Shown here one piece after another: positions 532-61,270 of a stretch of 64,000 bases of DNA (position 1 is the first letter of the stretch; each line of letters starts with the position of its first letter). Source of the stretch: Candidatus Iainarchaeum sp. (lineage in GTDB: Archaea > Iainarchaeota > Iainarchaeia > Iainarchaeales > JACQJH01); contig JACQJH010000001.1 of the NCBI GenBank assembly GCA_016205145.1, forward strand, positions 451,501 through 515,500, read 5' to 3'. The translations under genes were made by a program, and so were the position numbers. Under the pieces are notes generated by a model. It ran no database searches. It was not told where the DNA came from and saw only the letters and a program-made list of their open reading frames with translations.

Positions 532-589
532 GTTTCTGCAAAAATATCTGTTAAAAACTTTAAAATAATTTTTGGAAAGGGGGAGTTTG

Positions 590-1420
590 ATGACAAAACT
601 TGGGGAAATGGACGCAAAATCTTCTGCGCAGATTCCAAACAGCTTGGTTCTCGCGGCAAGCATATTTATTTCGGCGCTGATTTTATCGGCATCTGTCCTG
701 ATGGTGGGCAATTCCATTACAACTGAAATTTCAAAGCTTTCAGGCCTGGCGCTTGCGCCGGCAAATGCAGGCGGAACAGGAACCCAAGAGCAAAACGTTC
801 CTTCGCCCGCGCAGGCTGCGCCTTCTCCTGAGCCGGCGGCGCCCGAAATTTCGCTGAAAACGGTTTCAGGCAATGCAGCCGGAGTCATGGGCGAGGACAA
901 TGCGCCGGTTACAATCGTGGAATATTCCGATTTCCAGTGCCCGTTCTGCAGGCGCCATTACACTGAAACGCACCAGCAGCTGATAGACAATTACGTGAAG
1001 ACCGGCAAGGCAAAGCTTGTTTTCAAGGATCTGCCTTTGGACTTCCATCCTTCGGCTTCAATGGCCGCGAACGCGGCAAGGTGCGGCGCGGAGCAGGGAA
1101 AGTTCTGGGAAGCGCATGACGCAATCTTTGACATGCAGCAGGCAAAGGATCCCAGCGGGGGAACCGTGCAGTTTTCTGCGCAGGACGTCAAGGATGCCGT
1201 CGCGAAGATTTCCGGAATCGACGCAACAAAGTTCAATTCGTGCGTTGACAGCAGCAAGTATGCAAGCGATGTGAAGGCAAGCTACACCGAAGGCTTTTCC
1301 ATCGGCATAAACGGCACGCCGAGCTTTGTCATCGGACCGACGGACGGCAAGGGCCAGATTGTCGTTGGGGCGCAGCCTTTCGCGACATTCAAGGCGGTCG
1401 TAGACGGGTATTTGGGCTGA
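590..1420 (+). CDS. DsbA-like thiol:disulfide oxidoreductase. It has an N-terminal TM anchor and a Pro/Ala-rich linker.
   Basis: The motif FQCPFCRRHY is a CxxC in DsbA/thioredoxin-fold context. A GGGGG RBS precedes the ATG at 590. The ORF-track start at 572 is an alternative. Confidence 0.75.
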   Translation: MTKLGEMDAKSSAQIPNSLVLAASIFISALILSASVLMVGNSITTEISKLSGLALAPANAGGTGTQEQNVPSPAQAAPSPEPAAPEISLKTVSGNAAGVMGEDNAPVTIVEYSDFQCPFCRRHYTETHQQLIDNYVKTGKAKLVFKDLPLDFHPSASMAANAARCGAEQGKFWEAHDAIFDMQQAKDPSGGTVQFSAQDVKDAVAKISGIDATKFNSCVDSSKYASDVKASYTEGFSIGINGTPSFVIGPTDGKGQIVVGAQPFATFKAVVDGYLG

Positions 1421-1465
1421 AACCCAAATACCCCACTTTCTTTCTTTTCATTTTTTTGCGGGCTG

Positions 1466-2017
1466 GTGCAATTGGATTTTTTTGATTCCATGAACGCGAA
1501 AACCGCGCATCTTTCCAGAGCTTTCCGCATTGTGTTTTCCCGGCCCAAATATTCGCTTCTTGCCATTTTTCTTGCCATGGCTCTTTTTTTGGGTGTAAAC
1601 TTTCTTGTCAACTGGCGCCTGCTTTCGGGTTTCGTGCTTGGAAACTTTCCGCTGTCAAACAAAATCACGGTCCTTTCCGGATTAGCGCAGGGAAGCCTGC
1701 TAAACAACACGACTGAAACTTTTTTTTCCTTCGCCGTCGTGTCATTGCTAATCGGCGTGAACGTTTCGCTTTTCGCCTATCGCATCAGGCATTCGGGCTT
1801 GGACAAAAAGGCGGGCGCGAGCGGCATTCTGGGCGGGTTTTTCGGGCTGTTTGCCGCGGGCTGCACGGCCTGCACGCTTTCGCTTGTGGCATTTTTCGGT
1901 TTCGCGGGATTGTTTGCGCTGCTGCCTTTCAGGGGCTTTGAAGTGTGGGCATTGGGAATCGCGGTCCTCATGTTGAGCATTTACTGGAATTCGAAAAGCA
2001 TCTGCGGAGTCTGCTAG
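1466..2017 (+). CDS. Small polytopic membrane protein with an intramembrane CxxC (AAGCTACTL) and a C-terminal CGVC. It may be a DsbB/VKOR-like partner of the adjacent DsbA-like protein. This is paralog 1 of 3.
   Basis: Several hydrophobic helices, with a CxxC inside a helix. Paralogs occur at 6747 and 9725. The start is GTG 1466 or ATG 1490. Confidence 0.45.
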   Translation: MQLDFFDSMNAKTAHLSRAFRIVFSRPKYSLLAIFLAMALFLGVNFLVNWRLLSGFVLGNFPLSNKITVLSGLAQGSLLNNTTETFFSFAVVSLLIGVNVSLFAYRIRHSGLDKKAGASGILGGFFGLFAAGCTACTLSLVAFFGFAGLFALLPFRGFEVWALGIAVLMLSIYWNSKSICGVC

Positions 2018-2029
2018 CAGTTCGGGGGA

Positions 2030-2596
2030 ATGCGCATGGGCCTGACAAAACACGAAAGGAAACAGCTGAAAAAAACGGAACGGCTTGAAAGCGAAAGGAC
2101 CCTTGGCGAAAAAAAGCGGAAGGAAAATTTCCTGAAAAACGCGGGCATGGCAATCCTTGCAATCGCGGTTGTCGCGGCAATCGCCTTTTTTGCGTTGCAG
2201 GCAAATGCCAACAGGCCCAAACTGGACACGCGCGGCATTTCCTTTCCGTTGGTGAACGTGCACTGGCACGCCACGCCCCGCATTTTTTTGTGCGGCGGGG
2301 AAAAGTTGATTCCGACGCCGCCTGAAACAAATCCTTTGCTGCACACGCATGAGGACAGGCTCATCCACATCGAAGGCAGCGTTTCCGGGCCGGAGCAGAT
2401 AACCCTGGAAAGGTTTTTTGACGGCATCGGCATAAAGTTTTCTTCAACCGGAATCTGGGGCAAAAGGAACGGCGACACCTGCGAAAACACGGGCAAGGCG
2501 GGAAAGGTTTCAATGAAGGTCAACGGTTCCGCAAACACTGAGTTCCAGAATTTTGTGCCAAAGGACGGCGACGTGATAGAAATTCGTTTTGAATAG
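2030..2596 (+). CDS. Membrane-anchored His-rich protein of unknown function (HWHATP...LLHTHED).
   Basis: One N-terminal TM helix. The extracytoplasmic domain carries clustered His residues. It sits inside the metal island. Confidence 0.4.
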   Translation: MRMGLTKHERKQLKKTERLESERTLGEKKRKENFLKNAGMAILAIAVVAAIAFFALQANANRPKLDTRGISFPLVNVHWHATPRIFLCGGEKLIPTPPETNPLLHTHEDRLIHIEGSVSGPEQITLERFFDGIGIKFSSTGIWGKRNGDTCENTGKAGKVSMKVNGSANTEFQNFVPKDGDVIEIRFE

Positions 2597-2606
2597 GCGT
2601 TGTGAC

Positions 2607-2801
2607 ATGAATAAAGTGAAACAAACCGCGTTGTTCACCTGCCCGGAATGCGGCGCAAAATCGGAAATAGCGGTTCCAACCGGCAGGTGCCTTGCCTTTC
2701 ACGAATGCGTGGCATGCCATAAAATCATCGCGGCAAAAAAATCCTGTTGCGTCATCTGCGACTACTCCGACAAGAAGTGCCCTGTTTCAGCAAAACACTG
2801 A
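2607..2801 (+). CDS. Small Cys-rich (about 10 Cys in 65 aa) zinc-ribbon-like metal-binding protein.
   Basis: The pattern is CPECG...CLAFHECVACH...CCVICDYSDKKCP. ATG is at 2607. The ORF-track TTG start at 2589 overlaps the upstream stop. Confidence 0.4.
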   Translation: MNKVKQTALFTCPECGAKSEIAVPTGRCLAFHECVACHKIIAAKKSCCVICDYSDKKCPVSAKH

Positions 2802-2864
2802 CTGGCCGCACTTTTGATTGTTTGGCTTTTTTTTGGCGCTCAGGGGCTGTTCCGCTTTTTCCAC

Positions 2865-2911
2865 ATGGTTTCAACAACGGTTATCTATGGTTTCAGCCGC
2901 ATTGTTTGCAT
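2865..2911 (+). promoter_or_regulatory. Conserved 47-nt promoter/operator motif, copy 1: GGTTTCA-n12-TATGGTTTCAGC-n7-TTTGCAT.
   Basis: It is nearly identical to 9181-9227. It contains a TATA-like TAT.TATGG and lies 42 nt upstream of the GGAGG-preceded ATG at 2953. Confidence 0.5.
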
Positions 2912-2952
2912 CAGAGCCTGATTCAGGCAATGTTTTTGCGGAGGAGACGGAA

Positions 2953-3630
2953 ATGCAGGGTTGTTGCGGGGAAGGGCACAAGTCCGGTTCCCATAAGTCT
3001 GGTTCGGCTGGCCAGCAAGCGGAATTCAAAACCAGTGCCGGCGGCAAAAAGCTGGGTTTTGGAAAAACCGCATTGACTGTGGTTTTGGCCTTGGCTGTTG
3101 TAGCAGGACTGCTGTTTTTCCTTCGCCCCGGCTCGACTGGACAGGTGTCCGCAACCGCGACGGGCAATACTGTCGGTGCTGTGGCGCCGGGTTTTGAGTT
3201 GAAGGACATTGCCGGAAACAGCGTGAAGCTGAGCGATTTCAAGGGCAGGGCTGTCATACTTTTTTTCAACGAGGGCGGAATGTGCTATCCTTCGTGCTGG
3301 AACCAGATAAAGGCTCTGGCAACGGATGAAAGGCTTAACAACGAAAACGTGGCGTCTTTCTCCGTGGTGGTTGACAACACTTCGGACTGGGAGAAAATCA
3401 CGGCTCACGTGCCCGGCTTTTCGCAGTCGGGCCTGCTCTTCGACACTTCAAAGGTTGTTTCGTCAAGTTACGGGGCGCTGAACATGCCGTCTTCGATGCA
3501 TGGCGGCATGATGCCGGGGCACACATATTATATCATCGGAAAGGACGGCAAAATAAAGTTCATTTTCGACGACCCGCAGATGGGCGTGAGGAACGACCTG
3601 CTTGCCGCTGAAATAGCAAAGCTGGTTTGA
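2953..3630 (+). CDS. Membrane-anchored thioredoxin-like (TlpA/redoxin family) protein with an N-terminal Cys/His-rich tail (MQGCCGEGHKSGSHKSGS).
   Basis: The active-site-like motif is GGMCYPSCW. There is a TM segment TALTVVLALAVVAGLLFF and a strong GGAGGAG RBS. The in-frame ATG at 2887 lies inside the conserved motif, so it was rejected as a start. Confidence 0.65.
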   Translation: MQGCCGEGHKSGSHKSGSAGQQAEFKTSAGGKKLGFGKTALTVVLALAVVAGLLFFLRPGSTGQVSATATGNTVGAVAPGFELKDIAGNSVKLSDFKGRAVILFFNEGGMCYPSCWNQIKALATDERLNNENVASFSVVVDNTSDWEKITAHVPGFSQSGLLFDTSKVVSSSYGALNMPSSMHGGMMPGHTYYIIGKDGKIKFIFDDPQMGVRNDLLAAEIAKLV

Positions 3631-3655
3631 CGGCTGGATTGTTTTTGGTGGTGGC

Positions 3656-4534
3656 GTGGGCGAACTGCTTTTAGGCGCGTCAATAATAACCGCTTTTGTG
3701 GCGGGAGTCGCGGCATTGTTCGCGCCGTGCTGCATTACCGTGCTCTTGCCCGCCTACCTCGGCTCGGTTTTCAGGCAGATGCGCACGGTTTTCCTCATGA
3801 CTTTCGTTTTCTTCCTGGGCCTGCTCGCGGTTTTCCTGCCGCTCGGCCTCGGCTTCGCGGCGCTCGGCGAAGCGTTCAGGCAGTTTCACGACGTCATTTT
3901 CGTCGGCGGAAGCGTTTTCCTCATAGTGCTTGGCGCCTCGATGCTTTTGGGAAAGCACTTTTCAATGCCATTTGCACCGCGCCCGTCTCCAAAAGTTACT
4001 GGTGCGGTTTCGGTTTTCGCGCTCGGCGTGTTCTCCGGCATAGCGACGCTTTGCTGTGCGCCCGTGCTTGCCGGAGTGCTGGCGCTTTCGATAATGCCGG
4101 GTTCGGTTTTCTGGGGCGGAGTCTACTCGCTGGCTTACGTGCTTGGCATGACGATTCCGTTGTTCGTAATTGCCTTCGCGCTTGACAAGTCGGATGCCCT
4201 TGAAAAAATCCGGCTGCTCAACAGGACCGTCGAATACGGCTTCGGCGGAGAAAAAATCAGCCTGCTTGCATCCGAAATGGTTGCAGCGTTGATGTTCATC
4301 GGAATGGGCTTGCTGACGATTTACTTTTTCATGACCGGGCAGCTTGCACAAAATTCCGGCTTCCAGGTTTCCACGAACGTGATGCTTGCAGGAGTGGCGG
4401 ATTTTGCCTCGAAGTATTTTTCGTGGGCACCGCCGGTTGCATTGGCGGGCGCGGTTGCGCTGATTTTGGCCGGCCTGGCGTTCATTGCCTTCAAAGAGAA
4501 GCATGGCCGGGGAAACGAAAAAAGGGAATCCTGA
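3656..4534 (+). CDS. ccdA: CcdA/DsbD-family transmembrane thiol-disulfide electron transporter.
   Basis: It has PCC and LCCAP motifs in TM helices (FAPCCITVLLPAYLG; IATLCCAPVLAG) and is polytopic. It has a GTG start. Confidence 0.8.
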   Translation: MGELLLGASIITAFVAGVAALFAPCCITVLLPAYLGSVFRQMRTVFLMTFVFFLGLLAVFLPLGLGFAALGEAFRQFHDVIFVGGSVFLIVLGASMLLGKHFSMPFAPRPSPKVTGAVSVFALGVFSGIATLCCAPVLAGVLALSIMPGSVFWGGVYSLAYVLGMTIPLFVIAFALDKSDALEKIRLLNRTVEYGFGGEKISLLASEMVAALMFIGMGLLTIYFFMTGQLAQNSGFQVSTNVMLAGVADFASKYFSWAPPVALAGAVALILAGLAFIAFKEKHGRGNEKRES

Positions 4535-4598
4535 TGGGAGGGATGAAAACGTGATTGCAAAAATAATCGAAAGCGCAAAGCGCAACCATCTCGCGCAG

Positions 4599-4760
4599 AT
4601 GGCAATCTGCTGCCTCTTGCCGGTGCTGCTGATAATCGCGTTGCAGCTTTTGGGTTACACGGGTTTCTGGGTTTATGCCCTGGCCCTCGCTTTGTGCATC
4701 GGCTCGCACATTGCAATGGCGGCTATTGGCGCGAAAAAAGAGGGGCAGTCATGCCATTAG
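4599..4760 (+). CDS. Small two-TM membrane protein with a CC pair (MAICCLLPVLL...).
   Basis: It is a short hydrophobic ORF in the island. The start is ambiguous between GTG 4551 and ATG 4599. Confidence 0.3.
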   Translation: MAICCLLPVLLIIALQLLGYTGFWVYALALALCIGSHIAMAAIGAKKEGQSCH

Positions 4761-4964
4761 ACTTAGGAAAGCACCGCGGCTGGCTGGAAAACGCCTTCTG
4801 GCTTCTCGTGCTCGCAGTCGCATACATTGCAATGCAAAAAGCAATGCATCCCGGCTGGACGGTTTTCGGAATCTGAATCCGCCGGGTGTATTTAGCCTGA
4901 TTTGGAAAAACTAATATAAATGCCGCTGCGCATCCATTAAAAACGCAGGAGGGCGGGATTAATC

Positions 4965-6689
4965 ATGGCGGGATTTGATGGCAGGACTGTCATTGGCTTG
5001 GCTTTGGTGGCCGTAATCGTGTTTGGGGCGGCGTTTTACATTGGCACATCCGGAAATTCCGGAATGCGTTCAGAGACGCGGCCGGCCGGAAGCGCGGCCG
5101 GGCAAACGGGCGCGGCATTCCCTTCCGGTGAATTGTCCGCCGGCGACAGGGCCATGATGGAGCACTGCAAGTCCATGCCGCAAATGCCGGGGTGCGAAAA
5201 ATTCGCCGGTCAGGAAGCCGCCGCAAATGGCGGTGCGGGTGCAAACGCCGGTTACTCTGATTCAGTTGCCGGGCTTTCCGCGGCAGGCGGAACCGCGGTT
5301 TATGATGCGAAAGACGGCGGAAAAATAACCCTGTCAGCGTCGGCCGTCAAAAAAACCGTTGCCGGCACGGAAGTCAGGATGCTTGCATACAACGGCCAGA
5401 TTCCGGGACCCACGATAAGAGTGAAACAGGGAAGCTCTCTGGAAGTGGAATTCATAAACGGCCTTGACTCCGAAACGACTGTGCACTGGCACGGCGTGAG
5501 AGTAAAAAACGATTTTGACGGCGTTCCGGGCGTGACGCAAAAGCCGGTCAAGCCCGGGGAAAAGTTTGTCTACCCGCTGGAGTTTCCGGACGAGGGCATA
5601 TACTGGTATCATCCGCACATGAGAGAGGACTACCAGCAGGAGCTCGGGCTTTACGGCAACATCATCGTCGAGCCGTCCGATGAAGGCTCTTACAACAAGG
5701 TCAACCGCGAAATGACGCTTGCGCTTGACGACATTCTGATGGAAGGCAATGGCATTGCCGCGTTCTCCGCCGATTTTGCGACGCATTCCCTGATGGGAAG
5801 GTTCGGGAACGTGATGCTGGTCAACGGCAGTGACAAATTTGAAATGGCCGCGCTGAAAGGCGAAACTGTGAGGTTTTTCGTCACGAATGCCGCGAACGCA
5901 AGGACATTCAACTTGGTTTTCGGGGGATTGAAGTTGAAGGTTGTCGGCGCGGACAGCGGAAAGTATGAAAAAGAATTTTTCGCGGACTCGGTTGTGGTGG
6001 CGCCGTCGGAAAGGTACGTTGTGGAAGTGCTGTTTGACGGGGAGGGAACATACAACATCCTCAATTCGACGCCTGAAGGAAAAACGGTTCTCGGCAAAAT
6101 AGCCGTGTCGGGCCGGCAGGCGGAAGAGGATTATTCCAAGGAGTTTTTTGAAACAATGGAAAATTCCCGGGTTGCTGACAGCATTTCCGGCATGAGGCGG
6201 TATTTTGACAAGCCCGCGGACCATGAAATAAGAATCGGCGTGGACCTGATGGGCATGAGTCATGGCAGCATGGCGATGGCTCAGGGAACCGGCGGCATCG
6301 AGTGGGAGGACGAAATGCCGCAAATGAACCTGGCCATGAACAGCAGGATAATGGAATGGCAGTTCATTGACGTGAAAACCGGGAAAAAGAACGAGGGCAT
6401 AAGCTATGAGTGGAAAAAAGGCGACAAAATCAAGTTGAGGATTTTCAACGACCCGGATTCCGCGCACCCCATGCAGCACCCGATCCATTTGCACGGCCAA
6501 AGGTTCCTGGCCATAAGCAGTGACGGGGTGGAAAGCGAAAACCTGGCGTGGAAGGACACGGTTCTGGTCCCGTCGGGTTCCACGGCGGACATTCTTGTGG
6601 ATGTCTCGAATCCCGGAAAATGGATGCTGCACTGCCATGTCCCGGAACACATGGAAAGCGGAATGCACACGACGGTAAACGTAATATGA
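4965..6689 (+). CDS. Multicopper oxidase (laccase/CueO-like), membrane-anchored or secreted.
   Basis: The copper-ligand motifs HWHG, HPIHLHG and HCHVPEHMESGMH are present. It has an N-terminal TM/signal and a GGAGGG RBS. Confidence 0.9.
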   Translation: MAGFDGRTVIGLALVAVIVFGAAFYIGTSGNSGMRSETRPAGSAAGQTGAAFPSGELSAGDRAMMEHCKSMPQMPGCEKFAGQEAAANGGAGANAGYSDSVAGLSAAGGTAVYDAKDGGKITLSASAVKKTVAGTEVRMLAYNGQIPGPTIRVKQGSSLEVEFINGLDSETTVHWHGVRVKNDFDGVPGVTQKPVKPGEKFVYPLEFPDEGIYWYHPHMREDYQQELGLYGNIIVEPSDEGSYNKVNREMTLALDDILMEGNGIAAFSADFATHSLMGRFGNVMLVNGSDKFEMAALKGETVRFFVTNAANARTFNLVFGGLKLKVVGADSGKYEKEFFADSVVVAPSERYVVEVLFDGEGTYNILNSTPEGKTVLGKIAVSGRQAEEDYSKEFFETMENSRVADSISGMRRYFDKPADHEIRIGVDLMGMSHGSMAMAQGTGGIEWEDEMPQMNLAMNSRIMEWQFIDVKTGKKNEGISYEWKKGDKIKLRIFNDPDSAHPMQHPIHLHGQRFLAISSDGVESENLAWKDTVLVPSGSTADILVDVSNPGKWMLHCHVPEHMESGMHTTVNVI

Positions 6690-6746
6690 GCGGCTGCCCG
6701 GAACCGGTTTTAATAACTGCGTTGCGGATTCATTCCGTGGCATAAA

Positions 6747-7217
6747 ATGCGAAAATGGTGGCAAGTGGACAAAAAAATAAAATTCCTGTTGGTTGGGGCG
6801 GGGCTTTCAATTCTGCTTTTCATAATCATGGGAACGCCCACGGCCCTCGTGCCCAACCCATTCATTCACTACAAGAGGATGGTTGCCGCGGCATGGTTGG
6901 ACTATTTTTTTCTCGCCTCAACCTCGATAATGCTTGCGGCATTGATTTCGCTGAAACTGTATTTCAGGTCGGGGCGCGGCCTCGGCGCAAAAGAAATCGG
7001 CGGGGGCGCGCTGGGCTTTCTTGCGTTCAGCTGCCCGATTTGCAATGCTCTTCTCGTGGCTTTGCTCGGCGGCGCGACGATAATGGCGTTCGTGGAGCCG
7101 TTGAGGCCGCTGTTTGGAGTCGTGTCGATTGCGATTTTGGGTTGGCTTATTTATGGCGCGCTGAAATGCGGGGGATGCAATGGCGCCGCAGGCCGGCACG
7201 GCATGAAAATTAATTAA
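6747..7217 (+). CDS. CxxC membrane protein, paralog 2 (FSCPICNALLVALLGG; C-terminal CGGCNG).
   Basis: Same architecture as 1466-2017. Confidence 0.45.
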   Translation: MRKWWQVDKKIKFLLVGAGLSILLFIIMGTPTALVPNPFIHYKRMVAAAWLDYFFLASTSIMLAALISLKLYFRSGRGLGAKEIGGGALGFLAFSCPICNALLVALLGGATIMAFVEPLRPLFGVVSIAILGWLIYGALKCGGCNGAAGRHGMKIN

Positions 7218-7247
7218 TCTGCTTGCATTTACATACAATCTGTTGCG

Positions 7248-7955
7248 GTGCTTGGAATGGCGTTTCCTTTGAACCCCTGGCTTTTCGGCTCGGCCGCCCT
7301 GCTGTTGTTGTGGCTGGCCATATGGCTTTTCAGGCCCGCTTTGCGCAGGGAAATGCTTTTGGTCAGCCTTTTCACCGCGCCTTTGGGTCTGACGGAACCG
7401 CTTTTTGTGCCCGAATACTGGACTCCGCCTTCGCTGTTCAACCTTGCCGCCACAACGGGCTTTGACATTGAAAGCATAGTCTTCTGCTTTGCCGCCGGGG
7501 GAATAGCGGCGGTCATCTACGAAATCCTGGTGAAATCGAGGCACAGTGAAATGTCCATGAATGAAATGCGTTCTAAACGGCACAGGTTCCACAAAATCGC
7601 GCTCGCCTCTCCCGCAATCGTTTTCGTGCCCCTGTACCTTTTTTCCGGCCTGAACCCGATATATGTTTCAATAATTGCGCTGTTTGCCGGCGCAATGGCG
7701 ACTGTCGTGTGCAGGCCGGATTTGAAGAAACCGGTCTTAACCGGAGGAACAGTATTTTTGCTCATCTATTTCTTTTTCTTCCTGTTTTTGAGCGTGGCAT
7801 TCCCGGATTTTGTGCCGAACGCGTGGAATTTTTCGGCCATCAGCGGCATTCTTGTTTTCGGCGTCCCTTTTGAGGAGCTGCTGTTCGCGCTTTCCTTTGG
7901 AATGGCGTGGGCGGGCCTTTACGAGCATTTTTTCTGGAAAAAACTGGTTCGTTAG
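7248..7955 (+). CDS. Polytopic membrane protein. It may be lycopene-cyclase-domain-like, based on PxEE-type motifs (GVPFEELLF).
   Basis: Seven or more hydrophobic helices and a PFEELLF motif. The family assignment is tentative. Confidence 0.35.
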   Translation: MLGMAFPLNPWLFGSAALLLLWLAIWLFRPALRREMLLVSLFTAPLGLTEPLFVPEYWTPPSLFNLAATTGFDIESIVFCFAAGGIAAVIYEILVKSRHSEMSMNEMRSKRHRFHKIALASPAIVFVPLYLFSGLNPIYVSIIALFAGAMATVVCRPDLKKPVLTGGTVFLLIYFFFFLFLSVAFPDFVPNAWNFSAISGILVFGVPFEELLFALSFGMAWAGLYEHFFWKKLVR

Positions 7956-7985
7956 GCCAATCAGGCAACCGGCAAAGGCTTCCGG

Positions 7986-8411
7986 TCAGTGCGCGCCGCC
8001 GCCCTTGAAAGTCCGCGCGCAGTGCCTGCAGCAGAATTTCAGGGTTTTTCCGTTTATTTTTTCCGTGTGGCCGCCTTCATAGACCATGCAGGCGCAGTGC
8101 GCGCACTGCGAAAGCTTCGGTTCCACGGCAAGGTCTATGAGGCCGCCGAACCTGTGCAGCATCGACTTGCAGAACGCCTTGCCTTCCGGCGTCAGAGCGT
8201 AAACCTTTTTTTCCCTCGCGCCCTCTGATTTGACCCGGATGTATTTTGCCTTTTCAAGTTTTGCGAGGAAAGGGTAGATCTGGCCGGGTGAAACCCTGCT
8301 TTCGAGCCTTTCGCTTATCTCCTTTATGAGCTCGTAGCCGTGCCTGGGGCCGTCGCACAGAAGAAGCATGCAATAGAATTTGGCCATGTTTGTGATCCTG
8401 ATTTCTTTCAT
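7986..8411 (-). CDS. PadR-family winged-helix regulator fused to a C-terminal TRASH metal-sensing domain. It is a candidate copper-responsive regulator.
   Basis: The N-terminus LCDGPRHGYELIKEI...GQIYPFLAKLE is a PadR signature. The C-terminus CAHC-x20-CCRHC fits the TRASH pattern C-x2-C-x19-22-C-x3-C. Confidence 0.7.
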   Translation of the reverse strand: MKEIRITNMAKFYCMLLLCDGPRHGYELIKEISERLESRVSPGQIYPFLAKLEKAKYIRVKSEGAREKKVYALTPEGKAFCKSMLHRFGGLIDLAVEPKLSQCAHCACMVYEGGHTEKINGKTLKFCCRHCARTFKGGGAH

Positions 8412-8453
8412 TGCGGTCAGGCGGATTTATCTGGGAAAACGTTTAAATATTTA

Positions 8454-8474
8454 TATATCTAAATTTGATATATC
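8454..8474. promoter_or_regulatory. Divergent promoter region with ATATATC-n7-GATATAT(C). It holds two copies of the self-complementary GATATATC-like element, between the PadR-TRASH gene and the Met-rich protein gene.
   Basis: Sequence TTATATATCTAAATTTGATATATC. These are TATA-like boxes for divergent transcription and/or an operator. Confidence 0.35.
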
Positions 8475-8542
8475 TGTTTTCTGGGCATCATTTTTCTGAG
8501 CGTCATTTGGGCTGGCAACAATTTTTTTTGGGGTGGTTTGCA

Positions 8543-9130
8543 ATGGTGGAAAAATCGGGTTTGCTGGCATTGGTTGTATTGGCGGGTTTAATCGCGTTGC
8601 CTGTTGCAATGGCGCAGGGTTCGGATGATTTTGCGCAGGCGAAGGCGCTGATCGACAGGAATGCGTCCTGCGGCAGCCTGAGCAGCGAACAGCTTGAACT
8701 GATCGGCGATTATGTGATGGAGCAGATCCATCCCGGCGAAGCCCACGAATATGTGGAATCGATGATGGGCGGCGAGGGCTCGGATAGCCTGAAACGGGCG
8801 CACATTGCCATGGCTTACAGGTTCTACTGTGCAGGCTTAGGTTCTGGGTTGAACGCAAACAGCCCGTATTATGGCGTAATGGGCGGCTATGGGATGATGG
8901 GTGGCATGATGTACGGCAACTATGGCGGGATGATGGGTTCTGGCAATGCCTATTCCACTTATGGGCTTATGGGATACGGCGGCGGAACCGCAAATTATCC
9001 TGGAATGATGGGCTATAATGCGTCAACCGGCGGCCTTGGCCTGCTTACGCAGGTCTTGTTTGTGGTGGCGCTTGGTCTCGCAGTTCTGTTCCTTGGCATT
9101 AAAGTCTTCGGGCAATTTCAAAAGCGGTGA
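8543..9130 (+). CDS. Secreted Met/Gly/Tyr-rich protein with a signal peptide and a C-terminal TM anchor. It is a putative periplasmic copper-binding protein.
   Basis: Signal peptide LLALVVLAGLIALPVAMAQG. The central region is MGGYGMMGGMMYGNYGGMMGSGNAYSTYGLMGYGG. The C-terminal TM is LFVVALGLAVLFLGI. Confidence 0.55.
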   Translation: MVEKSGLLALVVLAGLIALPVAMAQGSDDFAQAKALIDRNASCGSLSSEQLELIGDYVMEQIHPGEAHEYVESMMGGEGSDSLKRAHIAMAYRFYCAGLGSGLNANSPYYGVMGGYGMMGGMMYGNYGGMMGSGNAYSTYGLMGYGGGTANYPGMMGYNASTGGLGLLTQVLFVVALGLAVLFLGIKVFGQFQKR

Positions 9131-9180
9131 TTGAGGATTTGGGGTTGAATGTCCTGCGGGTTGTATGCCGGCCCGGAACA

Positions 9181-9227
9181 AAAGGTTTCAGCAATGCCTA
9201 TTTATGGTTTCAGCAGGAATATTTGCA
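9181..9227 (+). promoter_or_regulatory. Conserved 47-nt promoter/operator motif, copy 2, upstream of the cupredoxin-copZ-copA operon.
   Basis: AAGGTTTCAGCAATGCCTATTTATGGTTTCAGCAGGAATATTTGCAT aligns with 2865-2911. Confidence 0.5.
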
Positions 9228-9296
9228 TAGTTGTGTTTTTTTGCATCCGGTCTTTTTTATGAATTTTATGGGTGAAGGCTCTAAAGTGGTGGTCAG

Positions 9297-9728
9297 ATGA
9301 ATGAGGTTAAAGTCCAGCGTGTTTTCCTGTTGCTTGTGTTAGGCGCCCTGGTCGTGTTCGGCGGAATGGTTCTGTTTTGGTTTGGCGCTAATGCAGCGCC
9401 CGCCAGATCGGCATCGGTAAATAATCAGGGTATTGTTGCCGGAGGGAACGGCCAGGCACAGGACATTTACATCAGGGCGCTTTCAAGCGGAACCTATGAC
9501 AAAAGCGAGGTCACGGTAAAGAAAGGCGTGCCGGTCAGACTGCATTTTTCCGCTGACCCTGGCGCGGGCTGCGGAAGGTATCTGGTGCTATACGGCCTGA
9601 ACGTCAATGCGCTTTCCAAGAACGGCGAAGAAGCGGTTGTCGACTTCACGCCGCAACAGGAAGGCAGCTTTGAATACAATTGCGGTATGAGAATGTTCAA
9701 ACCCGGAACATTGAAGGTTTTGGCATGA
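9297..9728 (+). CDS. Cupredoxin-like copper-binding domain protein with an N-terminal TM anchor.
   Basis: The beta-rich domain has Cu-ligand-like residues HFSADPGAGCGRY...YNCGMRMFKPG in a Cys...Cys-x-Met arrangement. Confidence 0.55.
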   Translation: MNEVKVQRVFLLLVLGALVVFGGMVLFWFGANAAPARSASVNNQGIVAGGNGQAQDIYIRALSSGTYDKSEVTVKKGVPVRLHFSADPGAGCGRYLVLYGLNVNALSKNGEEAVVDFTPQQEGSFEYNCGMRMFKPGTLKVLA

Positions 9729-10201
9729 GCAGGCTTGAAGCTTTGGCCTTGGTGTTGTCGGAGCGCAGTCAGCTCGCAATATTTCTTGCGGCGTTTGCCG
9801 TGCTTTTGCCTTTGCTGGCAGTCAGCTCGGCAATAATTTCGCCGGTGGGTTTTGCGTTCAATCCTTTGGCTGAACCGCTTGGAATCGCTTTGACAATCGT
9901 CATTGCAATCCTGATGGGCCTGAACCTGACGGTCCTGTTGCATGCCCACGCACGCAATGCAAATGCAAAAAAGGGGACTGTCCTGTTCGGCGGCCTGGCG
10001 GCAACGTTTGCCACTGCCTGCCCTGTTTGCCCGCCGACATGGATTGTCCTGCTCGGCTTCGGCTCGGCCGCGGGCTTTCTTTCTGGAACCGGGATTTTCA
10101 TTGCAATTGGCAGCATAGTCTTGCTTTCATTGGCTCTTTACAATTCTTTGGGTTGCGCAGACGGAAACTGCGGGGTGGACAAGAATGGAAAAAATGATTA
10201 A
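9725..10201 (+). CDS. CxxC membrane protein, paralog 3 (ATACPVCPPTW; C-terminal CADGNCG).
   Basis: Its ATG overlaps the upstream stop (ATGA). Same architecture as 1466 and 6747. Confidence 0.45.
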   Translation: MSRLEALALVLSERSQLAIFLAAFAVLLPLLAVSSAIISPVGFAFNPLAEPLGIALTIVIAILMGLNLTVLLHAHARNANAKKGTVLFGGLAATFATACPVCPPTWIVLLGFGSAAGFLSGTGIFIAIGSIVLLSLALYNSLGCADGNCGVDKNGKND

Positions 10202-10388
10202 AGTGAAAGGCATGCATTGTAAGTCATGCGAAATCCTTGTCGCGGACTCCGTGTCTGAAATCAGCGGCGTGGAAAGCGTCAAGGCGGACAGCAGGAAGGG
10301 AACTGTTGTGGTGAATGTCCGGGATGCCGGGATTCTCGGCAGGGTGAAAGCCGCGATTGAAAAGGAAGGCTACAAGGTGGAAAACTGA
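10185..10388 (+). CDS. copZ: Copper chaperone CopZ (single HMA domain).
   Basis: The GMHCKSCE motif is the MxCxxC of an HMA domain. The protein is 67 aa. Confidence 0.8.
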   Translation: MEKMIKVKGMHCKSCEILVADSVSEISGVESVKADSRKGTVVVNVRDAGILGRVKAAIEKEGYKVEN

Positions 10389-11308
10389 TGGAATTCGAAC
10401 TTGAACTTGGCGGAATGTCCTGCGGCTCATGCGAGCGCATAATCGAAAAGGTTGCCGAGAAAGCCGGCGCGGAAGTCAAGGAAATCGACTCGCGCAAAGG
10501 CAGGGTCACAATCGTTTCCGAGGAATCCAAAATAGCCGGAATAAGGGAAGAGCTTGCCAAGCGCGGCTTTGCCGAAAAGGGCAGCAGGGAAGACGTGGGC
10601 AGGGGCGACCTGAAAAACGTTGTTGGCTACATTTTGGCAGTGCTGTCAATCCAGCCGCACGTCGAAGAGGAAGCCAGGCTCGTCAACCACGCCATTGCGT
10701 CCGCGATTATTTTGGCTGGGCTGAACATTCTGGCTTACCTGTTTTTTGTGCAGGGCCTGGAGAACGGCGAAAAGTACCTTCCATTCCTTGCATTGGCGAT
10801 TGTTGCGTCAATAACATCCGTTTTCGCGTACCTTCACGCCAAATGCTACCGTAAAATCATGTCCTGCCAGAACGGCATGATGGTCGGAATGACCATGGGC
10901 ATGGTTCCGGGCTTCATGGTCGGCGCAATCATTGCCGCGACAAACGGAATGTTTCTTGGCAGCGTGGCCGGAATTCTGACCGGCGCATGGCTTGGCCTGA
11001 AGAGCGGAAAATGCTGCGGCGTAATGGGCGCAATGGAAGGAGTCATGGCCGGCCTGATGTCCGGTTTGATGGGGCCGATGACAGTGATCATGACCCTCAA
11101 CGACAACATGCTCGTTCTGCTTTACCTGATTTTCGGAATCTCTGTTTTTTTGCTCGGCGGCCTGAGCTACATGCTGTACCGCGAGGAAGGCGAAACCCCG
11201 GTTGCGAACACAAAGCTGCCGGAATTCATTGTTCTCGGCATTGCGTTCAATCTTGTGCTGCTGGCGATAATGCTTTTTGCGGTTAAGGGGCCATTGAGGT
11301 TCGTGTGA
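10388..11308 (+). CDS. Fusion of an N-terminal HMA domain to a polytopic Met-rich membrane domain. It is a candidate Cu(I) channel or permease.
   Basis: The N-terminus carries GMSCGSCE. The membrane part is [19 protein letters not shown]...[24 protein letters not shown]. Confidence 0.55.
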
Positions 11309-11318
11309 GGGCGATGGC

Positions 11319-13775
11319 ATGAAAAAAATCACAGTCGGCATTAAAGGCATGCATTGCGCTTCCTGCGCCACGATAATCGAGCGTCGCCTCAAAAAAGTTG
11401 AAGGCGTGAAGGATGTCTCTGTCAGCGTCGCGGCAAACAGGGCGGCGATCGAATTTGATGAGGGCATTGCGGGCATTGAACAGTTTGGAAAGGCAGTGGA
11501 AAGTGCAGGGTACGAACTCGTCCAGCCGCAGGGGCAGGATTCCGGCGATGCGAAGATAACAATGCATGTAAAGGGCATGGATTCGCCGCATTGTGCGGGC
11601 ATTGTCGGGAATGCGCTCAAGGGAACCGCTGGAGTGAAAAAATTCGACCTCAGCTTCCAGAATGCCTCGGCAATGGTTGAATTCGATGCCTCCATCACCG
11701 GCTTTGATAAAATAAAGGCTTCGATTGCAAGGGCAGGCTATGATGCGGAACTGCTTGTCGGGGAGGAAACAGTGGACCAGGAGAAGGCCGCACGCGATAA
11801 AGAAATCGCGGAATTGAAGCGCAGGCTCGTTTTTTCGGCATTGCTGACCGTGCCGGTTGTCCTGCTTGCATTGCCGGAAATGCTGAAAACTGTTATGGCA
11901 TTCGAGTACCCGCAGTTCATAATGCAGAACATGGCTGCATTGCAATTGCTGTTTTCAACGCCGGTGATGTACCTTAACAGGGACATGTTTGTGAGGGGCT
12001 TCAGGGGGCTGTTGAATAACATGCCGGGCATGGACAGCCTTGTCGCTTTGGGCGTCGGGACAACCTATGCTTACAGCGCAATCGTGGCCCTGCGCATCAT
12101 TGGCGGAGTCATGTATTTTGAAACCGCTGCTTTGCTTCTCACGTTCATATTGCTTGGCAGGTACCTTGAGGCGATTGCCAAAGGAAAGACTTCCGAGGCA
12201 ATCAAGCGCCTTGTAGGGCTTGCGCCGAAAACCGCAATCGTGGTCAGGGCAGGAAAAGAGGTTGAAATTCCGATCAAGGAAGTTGTTGTCGGGGACATTG
12301 TCATTGTGAAGCCGGGCAGCAAGATTCCGGTTGACGGCGTCATAGTCGAAGGCGAAAGCAGCATTGACGAGAGCATGATTACAGGGGAGAGCATGCCCGT
12401 GCACAAGCGAAAAAATGACATTGTGATCGGCGGGACAATCAACGGCAATGGCTCTTTCAGGTTCAGGGCGACAAAAATCGGCAAGGACACAATGCTTGCG
12501 CAGATAATCCGTTTGGTGGAGGACGCGCAGGCAAGCAAGGCGCCGATCCAGAAGCTTGCAGACACTGTCGCAGGCTATTTTGTGCACGCAGTAATAGTGC
12601 TTGCATTGCTTGCCTTCGCTTACTGGTATTTCGTGGCAGGCCAGCCGTTTCTTTTCGCGCTCACAATCCTTGTTTCAACGCTTGTGATTTCCTGTCCTTG
12701 CGCAATGGGCCTTGCAACCCCGACAGCGGTCATGATTGGAACCGGCAAGGGCGCCGAGAACGGCGTGCTCATAAAAAACGCGGAGAGCCTTGAAATCCTG
12801 CATCAGGCCAAAACCTTTGTGTTCGACAAGACCGGCACAATCACCATGGGAAAGGCGTCGGTAACGGAAATCGTTCCGGTCGGAATCAAGGCAGCCGACC
12901 TTCTTTGCCTTGCGGCTTCCGCGGAAAAGAATTCCGAGCATCATTTAGCGCAGGCAATCGTGAAAAAGGCGAAGGAATCGAGGCTGAAAATTGCAGAACC
13001 GAAATCTTTCAAGGCGATTCCGGGGCATGGCGTCGAGGCAAAAGTCGGGGCGAAGAATGTTCTCATCGGAACTGTTGTCCTGATGAAAAAAAGCGGGGTC
13101 CGGATCGGAAACGATTTGGTTGGCAGGATGCAGTCGCTTGAAGAGCAGGGAAAAAGCGTTGTCCTTGTTTCGTCGGACGGAAAGCTTGTGGGAATGGTTG
13201 CGATTGCCGACACCATAAAAGAGCATGCTGCCGAGGCTGTAAGGCAATTGCAGGCAATGGGTTATGAAACCGTCATGATAACCGGCGACAATTCCCGCAC
13301 TGCAAACGCGATTGCAAAGCAGGCAGGCATTTCAAGGGTGCTGGCGCAGGTGCTTCCGTCGGACAAGGCCGCGGAAGTCAAGAAATTGCAGTTGAACGGA
13401 AGAAAGGTTGCCTTTGTCGGCGACGGCATAAACGATGCCCCGGCCTTGGCGCAGGCCGACATTGGAATCGCGATTGGCAGCGGCACCGACGTTGCGATTG
13501 AAAGCGGCGGAATAGTTTTGGTGAAAAGCGATTTGCGCGACATTGTGACGGCGGTAAAGCTTAGCAAATACACTCTCGGCAAAATAAAGCAGAATCTGTT
13601 CTGGGCTTTCGGCTACAATGCGGTCGGCATTCCGCTCGCGGCAGGCGCATTCTATCCTTTCACCGGCTGGCTTTTGTCGCCGGTCATAGCCGGAGCGGCA
13701 ATGGCTTTCAGCTCGGTAAGCGTTGTTTCGAACAGCCTGCTCATGCGCGGATGGAAACCGGATAAAAAGGTTTGA
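11319..13775 (+). CDS. copA: Copper-translocating P1B-type ATPase CopA with two N-terminal HMA domains.
   Basis: It has GMHCASCA and GMDSPHCA motifs, an [14 protein letters not shown] motif, DKTGTIT, and GDGINDAP. Confidence 0.92.
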
Positions 13776-24700: not shown

Positions 24701-24904
24701 GTTTTCGCCTTCTTCGCCCGCGCTTTTCGCCTTTTTTTCGGCTTTTTCCTTCAGTTCAATGGTCTTTTTCTTCCTTGCCTCGCGCGCCGCCTTGCGCTCG
24801 TTGCTTTCGCCCAAGACCTCGTCGAAAATGTCCTTGTCGTCCTCGACAAAAGAGGTCTCAATGACCTTCTCGTCATCGCTTTCGCTGGCTTCGGCTTCAG
24901 GCAT
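21779..24904 (-). CDS. Large (1041 aa) HerA/DUF87-type P-loop ATPase. It has a roughly 260-aa acidic/Lys-rich disordered N-terminus and a roughly 400-aa C-terminal extension containing wHTH-like segments.
   Basis: Walker A FVNGARGSGKS. Walker B with DEAH (LFIDEAHTL). A VFATQQPS sensor-like motif. The rest is low-complexity E/K-rich. Confidence 0.65.
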   Translation of the reverse strand: MPEAEASESDDEKVIETSFVEDDKDIFDEVLGESNERKAAREARKKKTIELKEKAEKKAKSAGEEGENITEENAPETAEKGKGVPAEKAGFENETVIESAAPDEKRVKRKRQAKQKPAQNAAAKESGNGIAGEGRAGKGAETDLDAAGVKAKKQAADDLEMNDELEQIALEEEDKQQIKDVILEKASIYAQKDELLPFDKEVGIREADIYSDQHKPNPVEAKTEKEKERDEEGGRFELSLLSDEKKKIAFIGRKKSLFEKYGEEAGLFVGKVQDSELNDFNVLVDSLNPHVIFVNGARGSGKSYVLGVLAEELAHKNKNVGIIVIDPIGVFWSMRFPNKDEREIGMLAKWDLTPQGLDNLKVFIPAGVKDQVPGGTFDATFSMHASLLSTDDWCLTFGIERFSPSGLLIEKVISKVRSGYEQKEGPKIAGKKGNYTLDDLINCLENDKELHSSDKGYKPDSIRALVSRFDAAKNWGVFSDKGTPLGELSMENQLTIIDTSFLEDNVSALVIGILGRRILAARKKTTRREAASRHKTVDADEMMELEIPPTWLFIDEAHTLIPSGNVKTPATTSLIEYVKQGRQPGCSLVFATQQPSAIDSHVLSQLDIIMTHKLVFDDDIKSVFKRTPTLIPKKFRKPTFIKTLPVGTALTGDRREETSRAFVMRVRPRMSQHEGREAETAELSKDLDPEKAKKLALEMCLAKIEKEGVIELEKIRQIINTVNNKFKANIEPSDIMEQLDRKGIEFDSEKQTVSVPGYEEEMEKKLEEATRKAEEIEKKVLKEEAPKPETAAGVQEPPELLAFPVQVNEEAARKAFNAMRQKKFLGFFGKEEMLESVYLKFIPVFAFKFNYFGSKEIFNVGEAYVNSLSGEFLHYAGNEFLESRGFKEFSQLNENEAILFNALKKDKAGLEALMQKTGMDEARLRRLLKSLADKNIIKIETANNETSFRLNESVDLPANPLHPIMNSLHGLPLKQQESVAIEAPRVSKEQAAESLKRLWSKIVVKKIETVYMPAYEGRLKSYDGKNRTIFLDAMKGKEIIY

Positions 24905-34587: not shown

Positions 34588-34660
34588 GGGCCTGTAGCTC
34601 AGCTGGTAGAGCGCCGCATTCGCATTGCGGAGGCCACGGGTTCGAATCCCGTCGGGTCCA
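34588..34660 (+). tRNA. tRNA-Ala (anticodon CGC) with the G3:U70 identity pair. No CCA is encoded.
   Basis: Cloverleaf GGGCCUG/CGGGUCC acceptor, anticodon loop UUCGCAU, TUC loop TTCGAAT, discriminator A. Confidence 0.85.
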
Positions 34661-39778: not shown

Positions 39779-39915
39779 GCCGCAAAGAATAGGAGCAAAA
39801 AAGCTTTAATGCTTTCAATTTGGCTGGCTTTTCTTCCGCCTTACCGGAAAAGCTTTTTAACCCCTTTACCTTTAATTAGTTCAGGTTTTTTTTGAGTCGC
39901 GGGGGAGAGAAAAAA

Positions 39916-46189: not shown

Positions 46190-46266
46190 TTGCACCAGTT
46201 TTGCAGTTTTTTTCCCATTTATTTTTTGAAGCCGCCAAGTCACGCCGGCCCAAAAAGCCAGTTCTA

Positions 46267-46290
46267 TTGTGGAACATTGTTGTGGAACAT
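46267..46290. promoter_or_regulatory. Tandem direct repeat TTGTGGAACAT x2 in the divergent FTR1/PAS-regulator intergenic region.
   Basis: Exact 11-mers at 46267-46277 and 46280-46290. Confidence 0.4.
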
Positions 46291-46358
46291 ATTTTAAACC
46301 TTTCCCGTTCCTTCCGCCGGCGCAAGCCTTTAAATTCCTGAGCCGCCTATTCTTTTGC

Positions 46359-60284: not shown

Positions 60285-60302
60285 GAATTTCTTATTTGCA
60301 CC

Positions 60303-61265: not shown

Positions 61266-61270
61266 TTAAA

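Follow-up and report, generated by a model that had tools for sequence, protein, structure and literature searches.

Genes for copper handling and genes for thiol chemistry lie side by side in a block of DNA from an archaeon of the Candidatus Diapherotrites (Iainarchaeota, DPANN), and the question raised by this locus is whether the two groups act together or are neighbours by chance. The block, here called the island, occupies positions 572-13775 of a 64,000-nucleotide stretch of contig JACQJH010000001.1, the whole of which is referred to as the window. According to the list of open reading frames (ORFs) and the public gene calls, which were taken from three independent contigs of the same organism (loci L001-L003), it contains 18 protein-coding genes, 17 of them on the forward strand. 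Three of the encoded proteins are identical to HY394_02240, HY394_02270 and HY394_02295 from a metagenome-assembled genome of Ca. Diapherotrites. A sequence-only reading had proposed a large island of copper and thiol-redox genes, and the identities of the encoded proteins were searched for in Pfam, NCBIfam and the PDB. All genes named in that reading were present as ORFs where it had placed them, and the profile searches bore out a DsbA, a redoxin related to TlpA and peroxiredoxins (Prx), a CcdA, a multicopper oxidase (MCO), a CopZ, a Cu(I)-transporting P1B-1 ATPase and a PadR-TRASH regulator. The secreted Met-rich protein was recognized by its composition and the HMA-fused Met-rich membrane protein by a weak HMA match followed by a membrane domain. 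Five genes had not been listed, namely those for a 188-aa protein, a GDCCVxC-domain protein, two small membrane proteins and a lycopene-cyclase-domain protein. The gene identities uphold the interpretation as a copper-plus-thiol-redox island. It is quite probable that the block is a copper-stress island of about six putative transcription units, the joint role of which would be to exclude Cu(I) from the cytoplasm and to limit damage to thiols at the cell surface.

The exporter at the 3' end of the island, CopA, carries the complete Cu(I)/Ag(I) signature of P1B-1 ATPases (GMHCASC10, CPC459, DKTGT503, GDGIND701, GYN765 and MAFSS795). In the MCO all four copper-ligand motifs were found (HWH174, HPH216, HPIHLH at about residue 508 and HCHVPEHMESGM556), and its relatives in the PDB are a bacterial laccase (1e-51) and CueO (1e-31). 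Met-rich inserts are present at the N-terminus (MMEHCKSMPQMPGC) and at MPQMNLAM451. Together with the genomic context these are suggestive of a cuprous oxidase, which is the likely identity of this MCO rather than a laccase or ferroxidase. FTR1 permeases usually partner a multicopper ferroxidase or a cupredoxin; an FTR1-family iron permease with an N-terminal extension of about 160 aa is encoded 39 kb away on the reverse strand (45314-46672, Pfam 1e-40) and might be linked functionally to the MCO of the island. The secreted protein owes its Met-rich character to residues 111-175, which consist of 15% Met, 32% Gly and 12% Tyr.

The protein that had been described as a cupredoxin does match Cupredoxin_1, and a phmmer search of the PDB related it to CupA (2MRY/4F2E, 9e-10) and to the metal-binding domain (MBD) of pneumococcal CopA (4F2F, 7e-7). 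The sequence has a hydrophobic helix at the N-terminus, and its C92 and C129-G-M-R-M align to C74, C111, M113 and M115 of Streptococcus pneumoniae CupA, which are the Cu(I) ligands of a chaperone that hands Cu(I) to CopA (PMC5646241). Because of this alignment it is regarded as a membrane-tethered Cu(I) chaperone and not as a blue-copper electron carrier. A cytoplasmic orientation and delivery to a cupredoxin-type MBD of CopA, as in pneumococci, were not found, the MBDs of CopA being HMA domains here. The orthologues have strongly positive N-termini before the anchor and low-complexity linkers rich in Gly, Ala, Ser and Gln after it, resembling the linkers of the exported DsbA and MCO. Since CopA moreover has HMA domains and no cupredoxin domain, the CupA-like chaperone may face the outside, opposite to its pneumococcal counterpart.

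In this part the island resembles the Cop/Cue efflux systems (CopZ-CopA of Firmicutes, CopA-CueO of E. coli and copY-cupA-copA of S. pneumoniae). Common elements are a P1B-1 ATPase with HMA domains, an HMA chaperone, a CupA-type chaperone with a C...CxMxM motif, a Met-rich MCO and a metal-sensing repressor encoded within the cluster. The island differs in that a PadR-TRASH regulator takes the place of CopY, CueR or CsoR, CupA and CopZ occur together, CopA has HMA instead of cupredoxin-type MBDs, CupA is probably on the outer face, two further membrane proteins (MerT-like C and HMA-7TM, see below) are inserted in the operon and the host is a DPANN archaeon, which has no periplasm. The earlier description of the island as extracytoplasmic holds for its anchored and secreted members; CopZ, the HMA domains, the GDCCVxC protein and the PadR-TRASH regulator carry no export signal. 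The features are compiled in Table 1.

Table 1. Genes and DNA elements of the island (window coordinates; TM, transmembrane helix; HMM, hidden Markov model)
Feature	Position	Strand	Evidence
Membrane-anchored DsbA-like thiol oxidoreductase	572-1420	+	Pfam Thioredoxin_4 1.1e-30 (107 bits), DSBA 3.2e-15 (57 bits)
MerT-like paralogue A, 4-TM	1466-2017	+	C-T-A-C in TM3, C-G-V-C C-terminus; family HMM 5e-35
Conserved 188-aa membrane-anchored protein, unknown family (HY394_02240)	2030-2596	+	HWH and HTHED..IH motifs, 2 Cys
Small Cys-rich GDCCVxC-domain protein, predicted cytoplasmic	2589-2801	+	NCBIfam NF041374, 4.6e-14, 52.4 bits (cut-off 40)
E1 promoter/operator-like element, copy 1	2867-2897	+	GGTTTCA-N15-GGTTTCA around TATA-like box
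Membrane-anchored thioredoxin-fold protein (TlpA/ResA/Prx-like)	2953-3630	+	AhpC-TSA 9e-16 (~1e-15), Redoxin 3e-9
CcdA/DsbD_TM-type membrane protein	3656-4534	+	Pfam DsbD_TM 2.2e-7, 30.9 bits (cut-off 27.1)
85-aa membrane protein	4503-4760	+	H..QMAICCLLP and C-terminal C-H
41-aa membrane protein, conserved	4751-4876	+	Called in L001-L003; L008 orthologue 4e-21
Membrane-anchored three-domain MCO	4965-6689	+	Pfam Cu-oxidase_3/Cu-oxidase/Cu-oxidase_2
MerT-like paralogue B	6747-7217	+	C-P-I-C in TM3, C-G-G-C tail; family HMM 3e-62
Lycopene-cyclase-domain membrane protein	7248-7955	+	Pfam PF18916 2.1e-17
PadR-type winged-helix regulator, C-terminal TRASH-like Cys cluster	7986-8411	-	PadR 1.2e-16, 60.9 bits (cut-off 27)
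E2 element, candidate PadR operator	8452-8474		TATATATC-N7-GATATATC directly after TTTAAA box
Secreted, C-terminally anchored protein with Gly/Met/Tyr-rich tract	8543-9130	+	Sequence, composition
E1 element, copy 2	9184-9214	+	Upstream of cupA-like operon
Membrane-anchored CupA-like Cu(I) chaperone, cupredoxin fold	9297-9728	+	Cupredoxin_1; C92 and C129-G-M-R-M
MerT-like paralogue C	9725-10201 (ORF opens 9680)	+	C-P-V-C in TM3, C-x5-C tail; family HMM 4e-42
CopZ-type HMA metallochaperone	10185-10388	+	Pfam HMA 1.7e-12; C-K-S-C; no signal peptide
HMA domain fused to seven-helix Gly/Met-rich membrane domain (HMA-7TM)	10388-11308	+	Weak Pfam HMA match
P1B-1 Cu(I)-exporting ATPase CopA, two HMA domains	11319-13775	+	Pfam E1-E2_ATPase 3e-63, HMA x2, hydrolase

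The absence of synteny in relatives had been named as an observation that would speak against the island, and synteny was found in both Iainarchaeota and Micrarchaeota. The scan of genomes for related loci was made with an alignment of the B clade of the MerT-like proteins. Locus L008 (Ca. Iainarchaeum andersonii) has, in the same order, DsbA, MerT-like A, the 188-aa protein, MerT-like B, both small TM proteins, CupA, MerT-like C, CopZ and HMA-7TM. Other Iainarchaeia keep DsbA, the 188-aa protein, B, PadR and CopA, sometimes with the MCO and CupA. In three Micrarchaeota loci CupA, C, CopZ and HMA-7TM succeed each other, followed by CopA in two of the three; the intervening genes of about 150 aa are C-type orthologues (about 1e-29 to 1e-31 in two loci and 4e-10 in the third). 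A C orthologue thus stands between the CupA-like and CopZ genes in L008, L023, L025 and L026, whereas the adjacency of DsbA and A was seen in seven genomes of two phyla (six besides the window). Orthologues of B, 49-70% identical, are present in eight genome loci, and those of the 188-aa protein in L008, L010, L012 and L013 (1e-42 to 1e-48). Every MerT-like paralogue thus has a conserved neighbour of its own, and the paralogy is old. Because the same gene sets recur in other genomes, the clustering is not due to chance. The island is flanked by housekeeping genes (an M42 peptidase, a 2-hydroxyacid dehydrogenase and an aminotransferase) and its GC content is continuous with that of the neighbourhood, so that it does not look like a recent import.

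The TlpA-like/CcdA pair and the genes for the Met-rich, GDCCVxC and lycopene-cyclase-domain proteins were not found in the loci of the relatives; therefore the window genome has the most extended version of the island seen. The lycopene-cyclase-domain gene, without an orthologue in loci L004-L014, falls outside the conserved core. In L005 (10461-11648) and L008 (5489-6673) a 394-aa exported rhodanese-domain protein with the sequence C-C-G-N-S-T-A-F-P-D-C-N-H-G is encoded directly after MerT-like B, and L004 and L005 also encode a DUF411 protein and a 409-aa DsbD_TM-like protein. They form alternative accessory sets of the same island.

On the thiol side, DsbA has its CPFC motif at residue 123 and an N-terminal anchor followed by a Pro/Ala linker, as is proper to a membrane-tethered DsbA. 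The CcdA-type protein has Cys in both TM1 and TM4, where they belong in this family, but in the form of unusual vicinal CC pairs (residues 25-26 and 133-134). The third redox protein belongs to the TlpA/ResA group by fold only: instead of W-C-x-x-C it has M-C-Y-P-S-C-W, a CxxxC motif, next to a Met/His-rich insert, and its best matches in the PDB, a Prx-like protein (2ywn, 6e-6) and ResA, range from 6e-6 to 1e-3. The CxxxC spacing, together with a P-G-H-T-Y-Y-I-I-G-K-D-G stretch, is Sco-like; a Sco copper chaperone is conceivable, although neither a Sco structure in the PDB nor the Pfam family SCO1-SenC was matched. The ORF of this protein opens at 2818. Its public start, ATG 2887, lies inside element E1 (see below), and ATG 2953, with GGAGG 8 nt upstream, is more likely the start. 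Initiation at ATG 2953 would give the mature N-terminus M-Q-G-C-C-G-E-G-H-K-S-G-S-H, a tail rich in Cys and His.

Among the small proteins next to these genes, the GDCCVxC protein has 10 Cys in 70 aa. The 188-aa protein gave no match in Pfam, NCBIfam or the PDB, and nothing useful in Pfam at E<=5 either; the two small membrane proteins and the Met-rich protein likewise matched no family, including Pfam at E<=5. The 85-aa membrane protein has an orthologue in L008 (1.4e-33).

Copper-linked envelope thiol oxidoreductases are known from the Scs system (ScsABCD) of Salmonella, Proteus and Caulobacter, which comprises a DsbA-like Cu(I)-binding protein, a DsbD-family electron transporter and a membrane-bound TlpA-like reductase or peroxiredoxin-type client (PMC10907172, PMC3322552, PMC8900818). 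The thiol arm of the island parallels the reduction of an envelope peroxiredoxin by a DsbD-family protein (PMC3322552). It differs from Scs in several respects. An ScsB architecture, the multidomain DsbD, was not seen among the island proteins, which show generic DsbA, redoxin and CcdA folds only, the CcdA being minimal and provided with the CC pairs mentioned above. ScsA is missing, DsbA is paired with a MerT-like protein and the thiol genes are physically fused to efflux operons. Beyond the common folds there is no sequence orthology. The thiol arm is thus an analogue of the Scs system and not a member of it. As Scs already links copper to envelope thiol homeostasis (PMC10907172), the combination of copper defence with Dsb-like oxidoreductases is not by itself out of the ordinary; the membership of the island and its DPANN host are.

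The three CxxC membrane proteins that had been taken for paralogues are real paralogues: they are 23-29% identical, have an invariant C-x-x-C and all match one family HMM. The public call of A starts at about 1490. An exhaustive profile search collected 1,637 cluster representatives of the family at E<=1e-3 and 540 at E<=1e-10, and it is as such representatives that the spread of the whole family was seen; none of those looked up has an informative name. A word-indexed search yielded 30 relatives, of which the named ones are all from Diapherotrites or unclassified archaeal metagenome-assembled genomes (MAGs). The members have four helices with an invariant C-P-x-C-N, preceded by GG, in the third. 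A conserved outer loop, G-I-P-T-x-L-I-P-N-P-x-F-x-R-M-T-P, holds an invariant Arg, and a second outer loop reads E/A-P-x-R/Q-P. The cytoplasmic tail usually has one or two Cys. Most close members have a second cytoplasmic Cys pair there, whereas two Cys are kept in 17% of the wider family. The distribution of Lys and Arg places the N-terminus, loop 2 and the C-terminus inside, which is the N-in/C-in topology of MerT.

It is to this mercury transporter that the C-terminal half of the family is distantly homologous, as three comparisons agree. MerT-like B weakly matches NCBIfam MerTP (0.002). Sub-threshold matches to Pfam MerT (PF02411) were given by 8 of 36 members (best 3.8e-5), the three proteins of the window not being among the matches at E<=0.01. 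A comparison with hhalign, using an approximate MerT sequence, aligned the family to MerT residues 8-75 with 94% probability (E 1.4e-7); the aligned unit consists of the Cys helix, the E-P-x-R-P loop, the next helix and the cytoplasmic Cys region. With MerT/MerP (and MerF/MerC) the family also has in common the GG....A that precedes the Cys pair and the adjacency to a CxxC metal-binding partner. It differs in two extra N-terminal helices, to which the P-T-x-L-x-P-N-P...R-M loop belongs, in the lack of the third MerT helix, and in a context of copper, CDF or P1B efflux without MerA rather than of mercury reduction. Because CPxC replaces the vicinal CC, the helices are four and not three, and the scores remain below the threshold, these proteins look like a sister family of MerT and not like members of it. 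Distant members adjoin genes for CDF transporters, ArsR, P1B ATPases including a YHS-HMA P-type enzyme, redoxins, DsbD_TM proteins, rhodanese and PadR; therefore the family is tied to metal-resistance neighbourhoods in general. The suggestion that the CxxC proteins take part in oxidative folding has to be modified in this light, a metal relay being at least as likely.

HMA-7TM, encoded between copZ and copA, has 77 homologues, and all those that carry an organism name are from Micrarchaeota (including Candidatus Bilamarchaeum) or Diapherotrites. Their alignment contains 34 invariant columns, nearly all Gly or Met, with 11 invariant Met; they lie in a stretch that runs from S-C over G-A-T-N-G-M-F to M-A-G-L-M-S-G. 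C160 is invariant, H150 nearly so, and a CC pair is usually kept, all three being located at the cytoplasmic face by the predicted topology. A confident AlphaFold2 model (pLDDT 92.9, pTM 0.88) consists of the HMA domain followed by seven long helices. In structure and profile searches of the PDB the HMA domain alone was matched and the seven-helix domain gave no match. From its composition and context we propose that HMA-7TM is a Cu(I) conduit.

Co-regulation of the island, the lack of which had likewise been named as evidence against it, was looked for in the DNA between its genes. The intergenic regions were read directly, a scan for sigma-70 promoters and intrinsic terminators being uninformative for an archaeon. 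The 31-nt element E1 matches exactly twice in the window (none expected in shuffled sequences), upstream of the TlpA-like gene and of cupA, so that two island operons have it in common. When slightly relaxed it matched nine times in 246 kb of non-redundant loci, always on the coding strand and a short distance upstream of an island gene, mostly at the start of an operon. Besides the window these sites are in L004, L005, L008 (three sites) and the Micrarchaeota loci L023 and L025, that is, in five other genomes. A gene for a DUF7343 winged-helix protein is divergent from E1 in several relatives.

The second element, E2, lies upstream of the PadR-TRASH gene. In the PadR-divergent intergenic region of L005, L006, L010 and L011 it has the form GATATATC-N7-GATATATC, which brings the number of genomes to five with the window, and its dyad symmetry would fit a PadR dimer. 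In the same four loci the orthologues of the regulator are found beside CopA. The TRASH part of the regulator (Cys at 103, 106, 108, 127, 128 and 131) matches TRASH_HVO_1752_C with 7e-5 and 23.3 bits, below the cut-off of 27. E1 and E2 are the best available evidence for co-regulation, which, along with induction by copper, is thereby suggested from DNA motifs. A TRASH regulator beside a P1B copper ATPase also occurs in the archaeal CopR/CopT-CopM-CopA systems of Saccharolobus and Pyrococcus (PMC7830388). From these the island differs by a PadR-type instead of an Lrp/HTH-type DNA-binding domain, by HMA and CupA chaperones instead of the TRASH-type CopM and by a far larger gene set.

Two other repeats were noticed. 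CATAATGTAAC or GTTACAT stands beside a TATTTAAA box upstream of MerT-like B in L012 (about 3420-3460) and L013 (about 7870-7910) and upstream of dsbA in L025 (about 10050-10090). It resembles the classical ATGT/ACAT boxes of PadR and may be a third operator type of the regulon. In the window the 13-nt direct repeat TTGCCTTAATAAT occurs twice with a spacing of 18 nt just upstream of dsbA (500-535); neither this repeat nor any promoter element was conserved upstream of dsbA across the genomes compared.

Taken as one system, the island would work as follows. In the cytoplasm Cu(I) would be bound by CopZ, the HMA domains and perhaps the GDCCVxC protein, and be pumped out by CopA. HMA-7TM would be a further conduit for Cu(I): its His and Cys at the cytoplasmic face would be loaded by CopZ or by the tethered HMA domain, and its Met-lined helices would carry the ion. 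At the surface the released Cu(I) would be captured by the CupA-like chaperone and the Met/Gly-rich protein and oxidized to Cu(II) by the Met-rich MCO, while DsbA and the redoxin fed by CcdA would form, correct or protect surface disulfides that copper would otherwise scramble. Each MerT-like protein is putatively paired with one anchored Cys-bearing partner (DsbA for A, the 188-aa protein or the MCO for B, CupA for C). By way of its intramembrane CPxC it might pass a thiophilic metal ion between the outer face and its Cys tail in the cytoplasm, in the way that MerT passes Hg(II). The PadR-TRASH protein would act at E2, probably as a repressor when copper is missing, and a second regulator at E1. 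For the proteins of unknown function, specificity for copper is presumed. A bolder form of this proposal is that of a DPANN copper machine without a bacterial counterpart, in which HMA-7TM is a new Gly/Met-zipper Cu(I) channel or exporter fed by CopZ. Here the 4-TM CPxC family of the MerT superfamily, with its roughly 1,600 cluster representatives from both archaea and bacteria, would provide dedicated partners for surface Cys proteins (A for DsbA, B for the 188-aa protein and C for CupA), each pair moving either Cu(I) or electrons across the membrane; this is conceivable, although we would not count on it.

Several observations weigh against a copper-stress island working in this manner. The directions of transport and the substrates are all assigned by analogy. 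The TlpA-like protein, with CxxxC and not CxxC, is not assignable to a reductase, peroxidase or copper-binding role. Pneumococcal CupA acts on the cytoplasmic side, and the outside location suggested here weakens the analogy. The window has no DUF7343-type regulator, so a binder of E1 could not be assigned in it, and the lycopene-cyclase-domain gene is not readily accommodated. The MerT-like proteins are the least certain part of the model. Their relation to MerT is partial, since it covers two helices, CPxC stands for CC and no member reaches the Pfam threshold; the MerT sequence given to hhalign was approximate. Their structure model is moderately confident (pLDDT 68.7) and found no structural match with Foldseek in the PDB (best E 1.0). 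Finally, MerT imports Hg(II), and import would make little sense in an island devoted to export, except as a means of capturing the metal or handing it on.

What the MerT-like proteins do is the point on which the explanations diverge most. A relay of metal through the CPxC, which fits the homology to MerT and the metal contexts, has a little under an even chance. The alternative is that they are transmembrane thiol-disulfide relays with DsbA, the 188-aa protein and CupA as redox partners. Reducing or oxidizing equivalents would pass through the intramembrane CPxC, linking the Cys tail in the cytoplasm to the partner at the surface, and the proteins would take the role of DsbD/ScsB or of DsbB/VKOR in organisms that probably have no quinones. 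This we consider possible but the less likely of the two, some probability being left for neither. It fits the DsbA/A-type pair, strictly conserved in the seven genomes of two phyla, as well as the open question of the electrons that reset CupA, the source of which is unknown (PMC5646241). It further draws on the redox-active Cys pair in every partner, on the invariant helix CxxC and on the second cytoplasmic Cys pair of most close members. The sequence similarity, however, is to MerT and not to DsbB, VKOR or DsbD, extracytoplasmic loop Cys of the DsbB/VKOR kind are lacking, the two C-terminal Cys are kept in only the small part of the wider family given above, and distant members have CDF and P1B metal pumps as neighbours, in many cases without a DsbA in the vicinity. 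Pfam matched neither a DsbB nor a VKOR in the island, which would leave room for such a relay; this negative is confined to the island proteins.

The purpose of the island as a whole can also be read differently. It might serve mainly cuproprotein biogenesis, inserting copper into a Sec-exported MCO (a ferroxidase with FTR1, or a laccase) while the thiol proteins keep ligand Cys reduced, as TlpA and Sco do for CuA sites. The MCO is membrane-anchored without a twin-arginine signal, so that it must acquire its copper outside the cell; the gene of MerT-like B is directly 3' of it, the TlpA-like protein combines the Sco-like spacing with a later His, an FTR1 permease is encoded in the window, and maturation of an MCO in Rhodobacter depends on CopA efflux (PMC8456105). 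We nevertheless consider this unlikely. It is weakened because most relatives keep the CupA/C/CopZ/HMA-7TM/CopA module and the DsbA/A pair with no MCO nearby. Moreover, CopA bears the P1B-1 signature of an efflux pump together with two HMA domains, the Met-rich inserts of the MCO are typical of cuprous oxidases such as CueO, the FTR1 gene is distant and the PDB search gave no Sco match. Less likely still is a general resistance to soft metals (Hg, Ag, Cd or Au) with mer-like uptake and sequestration. It would account for the MerT-related and GDCCVxC proteins, for HMA proteins that resemble MerP as much as CopZ, for the vicinal CC pairs in CcdA, the 85-aa protein and HMA-7TM, and for distant MerT-like members beside CDF and ArsR genes. 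Yet neither MerA nor MerB turned up, either in the island or in the ten largest ORFs outside it in the window, which are housekeeping genes and FTR1; the signature of CopA is that for Cu(I)/Ag(I), MCO and CupA are copper-specific components, and the Met-rich tracts fit Cu(I)/Ag(I) and not Hg(II). That the genes are chance neighbours or an assembly artefact without functional link, which the origin from a MAG and the non-conserved lycopene-cyclase-domain gene and TlpA/CcdA pair might suggest, is already contradicted and so improbable as to be negligible: the contig structure is identical in three independent read sets, the GC content is uniform with the flanks, synteny extends across two phyla and the cis-elements E1 and E2 are held in common.

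Elsewhere in the window, and unrelated to the island, a HerA/DUF87-type ATPase of 1,041 aa (21779-24904, reverse strand), a fibronectin-III-domain protein of 849 aa (39892-42441, forward strand) and a PIF1-like helicase (47040-48335, forward strand) are encoded. There are three tRNA candidates. One is tRNA-Ala at 34588-34660. Rfam reported a tRNA of 184 nt at 52641-52824 on the forward strand (43 bits), which probably contains an intron and is absent from the ARAGORN output; ARAGORN called a tRNA-Leu(GAG) at 52944-53026 on the same strand, 120 nt downstream, and the tools thus disagree. A tRNA with an intron is in keeping with an archaeal source. The GC content falls from about 0.52 to 0.34-0.47 at 48000-49000 and at 54000-63000, with a minimum of 0.34 at 61-62 kb. 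This drop begins shortly after the tRNA genes and may mark an integrated foreign element.

CopA, CopZ, CupA, the MCO, DsbA and CcdA are ordinary members of known families, and the pairing of copper efflux with thiol oxidoreductases has a bacterial precedent in Scs plus Cue/Cop. New are the host lineage, the conserved five-gene module in which two uncharacterized membrane proteins separate the chaperones from the pump, the set of three partner-specific MerT-like paralogues, and regulation by PadR-TRASH with its conserved operator-like sites. None of these four was found described in the literature searched, and neither was a MerT-like copper family, GDCCVxC or a copper island in DPANN archaea.

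DPANN genomes are about 1 megabase in size and are thought to have shed most non-essential functions. That a conserved locus of more than 13 kb is kept in such a small genome implies strong selection by copper stress at the cell surface. With the two conserved operator-like elements it becomes possible to predict a metal regulon in archaea that have not been cultivated. The MerT-like family or HMA-7TM could add a new mechanism for the transfer of Cu(I) across membranes, and MerT-like A, by its pairing with DsbA, could have a bearing on the way in which archaea that lack DsbB or VKOR recycle their disulfide-forming enzymes. If true, this pairing would make A the membrane partner that has been missing for DsbA in archaea poor in quinones.

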